Assembly (NCBI GenBank): GCA_002376875.1
Contig: DFOT01000012.1
Coordinates: 34,357-98,356 of the forward strand
DNA from: Opitutia bacterium UBA3534
GTDB taxonomy: Bacteria > Verrucomicrobiota > Verrucomicrobiia > Opitutales > UBA3534
Reading direction: 5' to 3'
Length of the DNA: 64,000 bases
Positions 14,960-15,534 of this stretch are shown in pieces. The position numbers and the translations under genes are program-made. Below the pieces are notes generated by a model. That model was not told the DNA's origin and ran no database searches. It saw only the letters and a list, made by a program, of their open reading frames with translations. Position 1 is the first letter of the stretch. Every line of letters begins with the position of its first letter.

Positions 14960-14974
14960 CTTGTATTTAAATAA

Positions 14975-14994
14975 GTTTAAAGCAGGGTTTAAAC
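14975..14994. promoter_or_regulatory. Perfect inverted repeat GTTTAAA-N6-TTTAAAC, candidate activator-binding site (UAS)
   Basis: 20-bp palindrome in the divergent intergenic region, about 150 bp upstream of the -24/-12 element. This is a typical UAS distance for bacterial enhancer-binding proteins. Confidence 0.35.
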
Positions 14995-15144
14995 TTTAAG
15001 CCTCTAATCTCTAAAGATTCATTTTTATAAGGTAAAGAAAAATTAGTTTATTAATCGTGTTAATCTTTTATAGGCCCCTTCTTCATCACATATGAAGTAA
15101 CAAAAAAAGAAATACAGCTATTTAATTAAAAAATAAATCTGGTT

Positions 15145-15160
15145 TGGAATAGAACCTGCA
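15145..15160 (+). promoter_or_regulatory. Sigma-54 (-24/-12) promoter candidate TGGAAT-AGAAC-CTGCA
   Basis: GG (15146-15147) and GC (15158-15159) have the exact consensus spacing of TGGCAC-N5-TTGCA. The element lies 45 nt upstream of the ATG at 15205 and is divergent from the sigma-54 activator gene. Confidence 0.5.
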
Positions 15161-15204
15161 AAAGGGCCTGTCTGTTATTTAACCCCTCTTTGTATTACCC
15201 CTCT

Positions 15205-15534
15205 ATGAAAGATAAGACTATTTTATTTATTTATGATGATAGTGATGCCAGGGACTTGGCTATGCAGAGCATACGTCGTTCTGGATACCGTGCGGTAGGT
15301 GCGGCAACACTACAAGAAGCTTTAATTAAAGCCTATGCTTGCAACCCTGATCTTATTCTTGCTGAAGGTCACCAGAGTGCAGATCTTTGGGAGTTCTTTC
15401 AGAGAGATCCTGCAGTTGCTAATACTCCAATACTATTAGTGAGGGATTTGATGCAGTCAGTTAAGTCAGAGTCTATAGAGTCTTTTTTTTCAGACTTCAA
15501 TTTAGGCAAAGAGCTGAAGCATATTCTTAAATAA
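15205..15534 (+). CDS. Single-domain receiver-like protein with degenerate phosphoacceptor site (pseudo-receiver)
   Basis: CheY-like fold pattern ILFIYDDSD...PDLILAEG...TPILLV. The acidic pair DD is kept. The position aligned to Asp57 is Glu (LILAEG) and the Thr87 position is Arg (LLVRD). Confidence 0.75.
   Translation: MKDKTILFIYDDSDARDLAMQSIRRSGYRAVGAATLQEALIKAYACNPDLILAEGHQSADLWEFFQRDPAVANTPILLVRDLMQSVKSESIESFFSDFNLGKELKHILK

Follow-up and report, generated by a model that had tools for sequence, protein, structure and literature searches.

The 64-kb stretch analyzed here (the window; Opitutia bacterium UBA3534, contig DFOT01000012.1) contains, at 14960 to 15534, a divergent control region that probably constitutes a small σ54-dependent module, in which an RtcR-like activator encoded on the minus strand would drive expression of a lone pseudo-receiver, that is, a receiver-type protein without the phosphoacceptor aspartate, encoded on the plus strand. 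Three lines of evidence carry this reading: the full-length match of the activator to a family of CARF-AAA-HTH enhancer-binding proteins, the recurrence of a σ54 promoter in the same divergent position in all loci of the closest sub-branch, and the receiver homology of the small protein together with the residues that it has lost. The features of the region, with coordinates in the window, are as follows.

13478-14959, minus strand: σ54 enhancer-binding protein, 493 amino acids (aa); identified with Pfam, NCBIfam, and PADLOC
14960-15204: divergent spacer between the minus-strand activator gene and the plus-strand small open reading frame (ORF); 245 bp, 29% G+C
14966-14996: TTTAAA array, its three perfect hexamers having their starts at 14966, 14976, and 14988 (spacing of 10 and 12 bp)
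15000-15143: AT-rich stretch that separates the promoter from the candidate enhancer; A/T tracts at 15022, 15038, 15102, and 15128
15144-15160, plus strand: σ54 (−24/−12) promoter TTGGAATAGAACCTGCA; position weight matrix (PWM) score of 12.9 and comparative position
15171-15204, plus strand: predicted 5′ leader of 34 nt, with inferred boundaries
15205-15534, plus strand: stand-alone pseudo-receiver (aspartate-less receiver), 109 aa; ATG at 15205, stop codon at 15532-15534
15536-17356, minus strand: convergent orphan gene (606 aa, from the ORF list) that bounds the transcription unit

The activator and its candidate binding site

Domain searches divided the activator into a CARF-like N-terminal domain (residues ∼1 to 175), an AAA+ σ54 interaction domain (residues 183 to 349; PF00158, E value, 2.3e−64), an AAA lid (PF25601), and a Fis-type helix-turn-helix (HTH) domain (residues 455 to 485; HTH_8, PF02954, E value, 1.3e−7). 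A Walker A motif (GETGTGK) and an intact GAFTGA loop, the latter within FGHKKGAFTGAS, were identified in the translation. The PADLOC model PDLC01995 (RtcR_PspF2--CARF_AAA_HTH) matched residues 2 to 488 against profile positions 2 to 476 of 481 (E value, 4.9e−122). The NCBIfam RtcR model (NF038308) scored 304 bits against a cutoff of 650 and was the only listed NCBIfam model to align into the N-terminal domain, where a weak Pfam match to Cas_Csm6_CARF was also found (residues 84 to 135). The activator was not matched by the Pfam RtcR model (PF06956), and a phmmer search of its N-terminal 182 aa against PDB sequences returned no match. The ORFs of the window that were scanned included neither RtcA nor RtcB, the neighbors of the activator gene being uvrB, which converges on its 3′ end, and the 109-aa ORF. 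Judged by these domain matches, the activator is an RtcR-like CARF-AAA+-HTH enhancer-binding protein and not RtcR itself. It is not a two-component response regulator, and a cryptic receiver in its N-terminal domain was unsupported, as domain-level matches there were of the CARF or RtcR type only. Since the activator is of the CARF type, its input signal probably comes from a ligand or partner that the CARF-like domain binds and not from a kinase.

Homologs of the activator were retrieved for comparison, the closest sharing 44 to 46% identity and none being found above 46%; loci of 8 to 11 kb were scored on both strands. The closest sub-branch comprises seven loci, namely, the window, L085, L086, L088, L090, L091, and L092. 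The window and its closest relatives are located among housekeeping genes.

Within the array, the palindrome GTTTAAA-GCAGGG-TTTAAAC (14975-14994), proposed in the original prediction as an upstream activating sequence (UAS), extends to an inverted repeat with perfect 9-nt arms, AAGTTTAAA at 14973-14981 and TTTAAACTT at 14988-14996, with 6 nt between them. In dinucleotide shuffles of the spacer, a 9-nt inverted repeat had a p value of 0.05 and three TTTAAA hexamers within 28 bp had a p value of 0.005. Related elements were found at the corresponding place in six of eight loci, and a TTTAAA array was found in four of the eight (window counted): TTTAAA pairs are present in L086, L088, and L073 (an Opitutales metagenome-assembled genome), and GTT(A/T)nAAC is present in L085 and L090, in each case 15 to 55 nt upstream of the activator ATG. 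The 12-mer TGCTTTAAACTT is common to the window and L073. The HTH recognition helix reads NR(Y/F) or HQF in the four loci with a TTTAAA array and HKF in the four without. Such covariation is what would be expected of a binding site, with the caveat that the number of loci is small and that they are not independent. From this pattern, the array is a candidate binding site for the activator, as a UAS and/or as an autoregulatory operator. That the palindrome acts as a UAS is held with moderate confidence, slightly above even; its existence and its plausible enhancer distance from the promoter (∼160 to 185 bp) bear out the earlier proposal, and it may equally be the promoter or operator of the activator gene. 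The AT-rich stretch at 15000-15143 would let the intervening DNA loop.

Several findings sit less comfortably with an enhancer at this site. In a k-mer search, the only 10-mers shared by the full set of eight spacers were low-complexity A/T words, which gave no universal motif, and the IHF consensus WATCAANNNNTTR had no match in the spacer with up to one mismatch. The repeats also lie very close to the activator gene, with the palindrome 14 to 37 nt and the whole array 7 to 37 nt from its ATG, a position that fits that gene's own promoter as well. Because of this proximity, the array may double as, or simply be, the activator promoter or operator. The array could thus be a σ70-type promoter of the activator gene, transcribing a leaderless or short-leader mRNA, or a pure autorepression operator, the UAS then lying elsewhere in the spacer. 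This alternative is a serious one, although less likely than a UAS role. Counted from the activator ATG, TTTAAA falls at −34 and TTTAAAT at −12, with 16 nt between them, and the distance of the element is fixed to the activator ATG across loci, while that to the σ54 promoter varies from ∼110 to 175 bp. Short leaders are also plausible in a genome without Shine-Dalgarno motifs: AGGA, GGAG, or GAGG was found within 20 nt upstream of none of the 33 gene starts having upstream sequence available, and the lineage seems to initiate translation without Shine-Dalgarno pairing. Against this, a consensus scan found no σ70-type site at the array, the presence of the array follows the residues of the HTH recognition helix, which is unexpected for a housekeeping promoter, and helically phased, perfect inverted repeats such as this one, with 9-nt arms, are characteristic of operators of dimeric HTH proteins. 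The two roles can also coexist, as in Escherichia coli, where the pspF promoter overlaps the PspF UAS.

The probable σ54 promoter in the divergent spacer

The sequence TGGAATAGAACCTGCA at 15145-15160 carries GG at 15146-15147 and GC at 15158-15159, 10 nt apart as in the consensus TGGCAC-N5-TTGCW, in agreement with the spacing noted in the original prediction. The ATG at 15205 lies 45 nt downstream of the site, and the divergent activator gene is 185 nt away. Scanning was conducted with an approximate σ54 PWM whose frequencies were based on the published consensus; the site scored 12.9, ranking second in the 128 kb scanned for the window and first within the 10 kb around the locus. With the same PWM, shuffled windows contained 2.0 ± 1.4 sites as good per 64 kb, and the loose pattern TGG-N9-TGCW occurred 24 times in the window against 21 expected. 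The promoter motif by itself is not significant. For a site of such quality to fall in the correct orientation within the 245-bp spacer, the prior-weighted chance was ∼0.004.

The comparative context makes the promoter convincing, since in all seven loci of the closest sub-branch the top σ54 PWM match of the entire locus lay in the divergent spacer and pointed away from the activator gene, a coincidence expected by chance in ∼1 to 2.5% of cases per locus. A divergent σ54 promoter beside the activator gene, as had been claimed, was therefore recovered by both the PWM and the comparison. More distant members of the family carry σ54 promoters stronger than that of the window directly after the activator stop codon, and in L037 identical σ54 promoters were found on both sides of the activator gene. 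In the window, uvrB converges on the 3′ end of the activator gene, which leaves the divergent site as the sole possible place for the adjacent promoter that is usual in this family.

The region was also compared with that of a near-identical strain (L084), in which divergence from the window is ∼1 to 7% by gene. The 245-bp spacer differs by one substitution (15162 A>G, outside the motifs), and the promoter motif is identical; synonymous sites of the flanking genes differ by roughly 4 to 11% (an estimate), and the 330-bp small ORF differs at 11 positions. By this comparison, the spacer is under constraint.

Some properties of the site count against its assignment as a promoter. Its −24 element is GGAA where the consensus is GGCA, its score is at the bottom of the range of the related promoters (12.5 to 20), and about two equally good sites per 64 kb are expected by chance. 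In addition, rpoN was absent among the ORFs scanned in the 64-kb window, the sole part of the genome available. If the −24/−12 match were fortuitous, the small ORF would be under an unrecognized housekeeping promoter in the AT-rich spacer and independent of the activator. This is unlikely: weak as the motif-only statistics are, with TGG-N9-TGCW not enriched and A in place of C at −23, the site is the best in 10 kb and sits where all six related loci have their best match; no second gene next to the activator gene could serve as its target, whereas an adjoining σ54 promoter is invariably present in family members; no σ70-type consensus was found on the plus strand of the spacer; and the motif is unchanged between strains. 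A further PWM, trained on seven related promoters, gave the candidate a score of 9.9, with ∼15 such sites per shuffle, which could be taken in favor of a chance match; it was overfitted and was left unused. Overall, the σ54 promoter is called with high confidence.

Taking C15159 of the −12 element as the reference, transcription is predicted to start near 15171. The resulting leader holds a tandem 15-nt repeat (TTATTTAACCCCTCT and TTGTATTACCCCTCT) and lacks a Shine-Dalgarno motif. No Rfam family matched 14700-15800 at an E value of ≤1, which makes the presence of a known structured RNA improbable. Since the next gene (15536-17356) is convergent and begins 1 nt past the stop codon of the small ORF, the promoter can drive the small ORF only, and the claim of a single-gene target held. 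The 606-aa gene is outside the module unless read-through yields antisense RNA.

In the related loci, the divergent σ54 promoters drive different targets: L090 has a PAS-histidine kinase, L086 and L091 each have a protein consisting of an HATPase domain only, L085 has a PAS-only protein, L088 has a membrane protein whose C-terminal stretch reads as PAS-like from its sequence, and L092 has an unknown protein of 91 aa. Most of these are, going by their domains, two-component-type signaling parts, of which the receiver-like protein is the version of this lineage. Our comparison suggests that one RtcR-like sub-branch drives two-component-type signaling proteins in Verrucomicrobia-like genomes, which would widen the known outputs of CARF-type sensing. 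As read from their sequences, the HATPase_c-only targets (3991-4659 in L086 and 3216-3812 in L091) appear to lack a recognizable His-box. Like the pseudo-receiver, several targets of the sub-branch may therefore be two-component parts that are degenerate and without catalytic activity. In L073, an IS3-like transposase pair, 5249-5560 and 4335-5423, both on the minus strand, lies past the divergent σ54-like site at 5831-5847, which suggests that the insertion displaced the original target gene.

Among the distant RtcR-like activators, those of L004 to L009, L028, L030, L037, L041, L043, and L061 are directly followed by a strong σ54 promoter (scores of 14 to 20). Reading of the sequence downstream in L004 (∼7500 to 10300) showed a small ORF resembling staphylococcal nuclease and a 759-aa HsdR-type helicase-like ORF; the alternative downstream gene of distant activators encodes a protein of ∼1,150 aa. 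These distant loci look like σ54-inducible defense modules.

The best σ54 PWM match of the whole window, TTGGCTCGGTCGATGCA at 53938-53954 on the minus strand (score of 14.6), lies within the 3′ end of an sctL/FliH-like gene, 57 to 73 nt upstream of the start of an sctN-like ATPase gene at 53881. It could be an internal σ54 promoter of a type III secretion system (T3SS) ATPase operon, or a chance match.

The pseudo-receiver and its possible mode of action

The small ORF encodes 109 aa, one fewer than the 110 first reported. Its description as a CheY-fold protein needed deeper evidence because the Pfam receiver model (PF00072) remained below its cutoff, with 13.6 bits against 30.2 (E value, 0.076) over residues 6 to 52 only. 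A phmmer search against 1.84 billion representatives returned 304 matches at an E value of ≤1e−3 (best, 1.4e−10), and those inspected were receiver domains sharing 28 to 40% identity over residues ∼5 to 85. The PDB receiver 3c3m was also matched (E value, 1.8e−5), and a custom profile of 180 receiver domains aligned residues 2 to 87 with 65 bits (E value, 5e−22), leaving residues 88 to 109 unaligned. AlphaFold2 with a small multiple sequence alignment (MSA) produced a β1-α1-β2-α2-β3-α3-β4 order followed by low-confidence helices (predicted local distance difference test [pLDDT], 78; predicted template modeling score, 0.74). In a Foldseek search with this model, the top PDB matches were all receivers, with TM scores of ∼0.7 and the first 78 residues superposed at 1.8 Å. 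An earlier single-sequence AlphaFold model (pLDDT, 61), superseded by the MSA-based one, gave no significant Foldseek matches. The receiver homology thus stands over residues 2 to 87, while the C-terminal face is not recognizable as that of a CheY-type protein.

Residues at the positions used for phosphotransfer were assigned from 234 pairwise receiver alignments. Asp11 and Asp12 form the acidic pair (Asp12 and Asp13 of CheY), in columns that hold Asp in 223 and 189 of the 234 alignments, respectively. Glu54 occupies the phosphoacceptor position (Asp57 of CheY), where 210 of 227 alignments have Asp; Glu is found in L084 as well. The replacement of Asp57 by Glu that had been read from the sequence was borne out, and there is no intact phosphoacceptor Asp. 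At the position of Thr87 of CheY, where Ser or Thr is present in 143 of 160 alignments, the protein has Arg80 (Lys in L084), in line with the reported loss of this residue. The companion claim, that the equivalent of Lys109 is not conserved, depends on the alignment, as the corresponding residue is Lys102 in the ungapped pairwise alignment, Ser93 with MAFFT, and unaligned in the 180-sequence profile. Aligned to the profile, the β3-α3 loop is short by four residues, and the usual Pro at D+4 is missing from the translation. The α4-β5-α5 face is not recognizable, and the 22-aa tail after residue 87 is non-canonical.

Pseudo-receivers are defined by recognizable receiver homology without the residues required for phosphotransfer (PMC12632262, PMC4395418), and on the alignments above the small protein is, with high confidence, a stand-alone pseudo-receiver. 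With Glu in place of Asp, Arg in place of Thr/Ser, and a degenerate C-terminal face, canonical phosphotransfer would be impossible. Glu, the most frequent substitute for the receiver Asp, is proposed to imitate the phosphorylated state through contact with the conserved Thr and Lys (PMC12632262). As the Thr is absent, a phosphomimetic role is not established, and the original prediction over-read the substitution in calling it phosphomimetic: the Thr is replaced by Arg or Lys, the loop is shortened, and the α4-β5-α5 face cannot be recognized. A degenerate pseudo-receiver is the better description.

The AlphaFold2 model has to be read with reserve in this respect, being built on an MSA of receivers and therefore biased toward the receiver fold; its C-terminal third was modeled at a pLDDT of ∼60, as helices and without β5. 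Searches for orthologs of the small protein returned only itself and a ∼98% identical variant, with none outside the two near-identical strains. Between the window and L084, the small ORF shows nine synonymous codon changes, including the stop codon (TAA to TGA), and two conservative non-synonymous ones (N47S and R80K), and this ratio argues for a real gene under purifying selection. Least probable of the alternatives is that the ORF is a functionless, decaying remnant of a response regulator or hybrid kinase, its promoter being a relic or a source of antisense RNA into the 606-aa gene; although the receiver is truncated or degenerate past residue 87 and confined to one species-level lineage, the ORF has a G+C content of 39% against 45 to 47% in neighboring genes, the targets in related loci are variable two-component parts, sometimes fragments limited to a PAS or an HATPase domain, and the hairpin at the junction with the convergent gene is weak, the reading frame is intact, the stop position is kept, and both strains preserve Asp11, Asp12, and Glu54 of the core.

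In the favored model, the CARF-like domain would, by analogy with RtcR, restrain the AAA+ ATPase until a ligand or partner binds. The Fis-type HTH domain would then bind the repeat array (TTTAAA/GTTTAAAC) that immediately precedes the activator's own start codon, and the activator, looping over ∼150 bp of AT-rich DNA, would remodel RNA polymerase-σ54 at TTGGAAT-N5-CTGCA (15144-15160). A short monocistronic transcript from near 15171 would encode the 109-aa stand-alone pseudo-receiver, whose activity would most likely be governed by its dose and exerted by binding another protein. As the sole product of a σ54 promoter under the control of a CARF-type activator, the dose of pseudo-receiver would itself be the signal. 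By analogy with other pseudo-receivers, it is plausible that activity is set by the amount made; some constitutively active pseudo-receivers are controlled via their synthesis (PMC12632262). The control of bacterial pseudo-receivers is acknowledged in the literature as an open question (PMC12632262), for which this locus would offer a clean, testable case.

A more speculative extension, to which only a low probability is given, is that the pseudo-receiver is a detached, phosphorylation-independent partner (an anti- or co-activator) of the activator that binds its CARF-like or AAA+ domain, closing a loop like those of PspA-PspF or RtcAB-RtcR, and that a Verrucomicrobia sub-branch of RtcR-like activators was rewired from defense or RNA-repair targets to two-component parts. 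If this extension were true, CARF-type sensing would be linked to two-component signaling, possibly including an AtoS/NtrB-like orphan kinase encoded at 1828-2988, 12 kb from the activator locus and without an adjacent regulator. A link between this kinase and the pseudo-receiver is possible. The practical value is modest and lies in the annotation of a promoter, an operator, and a target in an uncultured marine lineage.

Neighboring genes and comparison with known systems

The contigs derive from Tara Oceans surface metagenomes (marine surface water), and the nearest named relatives of GyrB are Opitutales/Puniceicoccus-type Verrucomicrobiota (75 to 79% identity). On these GyrB matches, an origin in Chlamydiae, to which the T3SS and the AtoS-like kinase had seemed to point, was rejected. 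The convergent 606-aa protein (15536-17356) belongs to no Pfam family and has weak matches only, to SLATT (E value, 0.0017) and LeoBC (E value, 1.5e−5). Read from its sequence, it is rich in Lys and Glu, probably coiled-coil, and carries a hydrophobic block at residues ∼440 to 510. The G+C content of its gene is 41%, lower than that of its neighbors, as is also the case for the pseudo-receiver gene. A role for this protein as a membrane effector or as a substrate of the T3SS is conceivable. The mechanical ORF of uvrB begins at 11415 on the plus strand, overlapping the end of a transporter gene (10193-11491); public gene calls place the ATG at 11511 and give 656 aa, which agrees with the UvrB alignment. 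Synteny of uvrB in metagenomes was uninformative, with no activator beside uvrB in the best relative (L093, 69% identity).

A compact, non-flagellar T3SS cluster occupies 45000-59000 on the minus strand and includes SctU, SctT, SctR, SctQ, YscO, the ATPase, SctL, YscK, and an SctD with an FHA domain. A methyl-accepting chemotaxis protein (MCP) signaling domain is carried by a soluble protein (22-981, plus strand), and an ExbB/ExbD pair is encoded at 7240-8150 on the plus strand; both are present in a window in which flagellar genes were not seen. In a UvrD/AddA-like helicase gene (18113-21166, plus strand), 7.4% of positions differ from L084 and 68 codons carry non-synonymous changes, while its neighbors differ by 1 to 4.5%, marking a local hot spot of divergence or recombination.

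Of the known systems, the rtcR-rtcBA locus of E. coli and Salmonella resembles the window in its three-domain activator and in the divergence of the activator gene from a σ54 promoter with an upstream activator site. The RtcR control region comprises a UAS, an IHF site, and a −24/−12 site, and the CARF domain of RtcR is inhibitory, as its deletion leads to constitutive activity (PMC9650030). A CARF-like domain is the presumed regulatory input in both cases. The window differs in that rtcA and rtcB are not adjacent, that no IHF site was found, and that the target is a pseudo-receiver and not RNA repair enzymes. RtcR-like CARF-AAA-HTH proteins unlinked to rtc genes have been predicted to be σ54 activators of neighboring genes (Makarova et al. 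2014, PMC4012209), and described members of the RtcR_PspF family are associated with restriction-modification or defense-type genes (PMC4012209). The window activator matches this family (PDLC01995) over its full length, and members share a σ54 promoter adjoining the activator gene. Whereas the nuclease-like and helicase-like ORFs of L004 to L009 fit an association with defense, the window and its closest relatives drive two-component-type proteins.

In the pspF-pspABCDE region of E. coli, the σ54 promoter is divergent from the activator gene, and the enhancer overlaps the activator promoter, serving both activation and autorepression. PspA is a small, target-encoded protein that feeds back on PspF, an activator without an N-terminal sensor, and the target is a membrane-stress operon. 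The divergent layout is shared with the window, where feedback of the pseudo-receiver on the activator is a hypothesis only.

At the protein level, ChxR, CmrT, and plant pseudo-response regulators with Glu at the Asp position have, like the window protein, a receiver core without a phosphorylatable Asp. Loss of features of the β3-α3 loop (no Pro at D+4) is typical of pseudo-receivers, and control by synthesis is accepted for some (PMC12632262, PMC4395418, PMC3960148). The window protein differs from these examples in standing alone, in its length of 109 aa, and in lacking both the Thr/Ser and a recognizable α4-β5-α5 face. A pseudo-receiver under a CARF-type σ54 activator was not found described in the literature searched.

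Two-component control of σ54 transcription is exemplified by NtrB/NtrC-type systems, including the chlamydial CtcB/CtcC. As in these, a σ54 activator and two-component parts occur in one genome here (the kinase at 1828-2988), and in L090 a PAS-histidine kinase is the divergent neighbor of the activator gene. Unlike NtrC, the window activator has no receiver domain, the receiver-like protein being a separate, non-phosphorylatable polypeptide, and kinase-type genes in the related loci appear to be driven by the promoter and not to provide its input. All components of the locus are of known kinds; what is new is the pairing of a CARF-type σ54 activator with a lone Glu-type pseudo-receiver.

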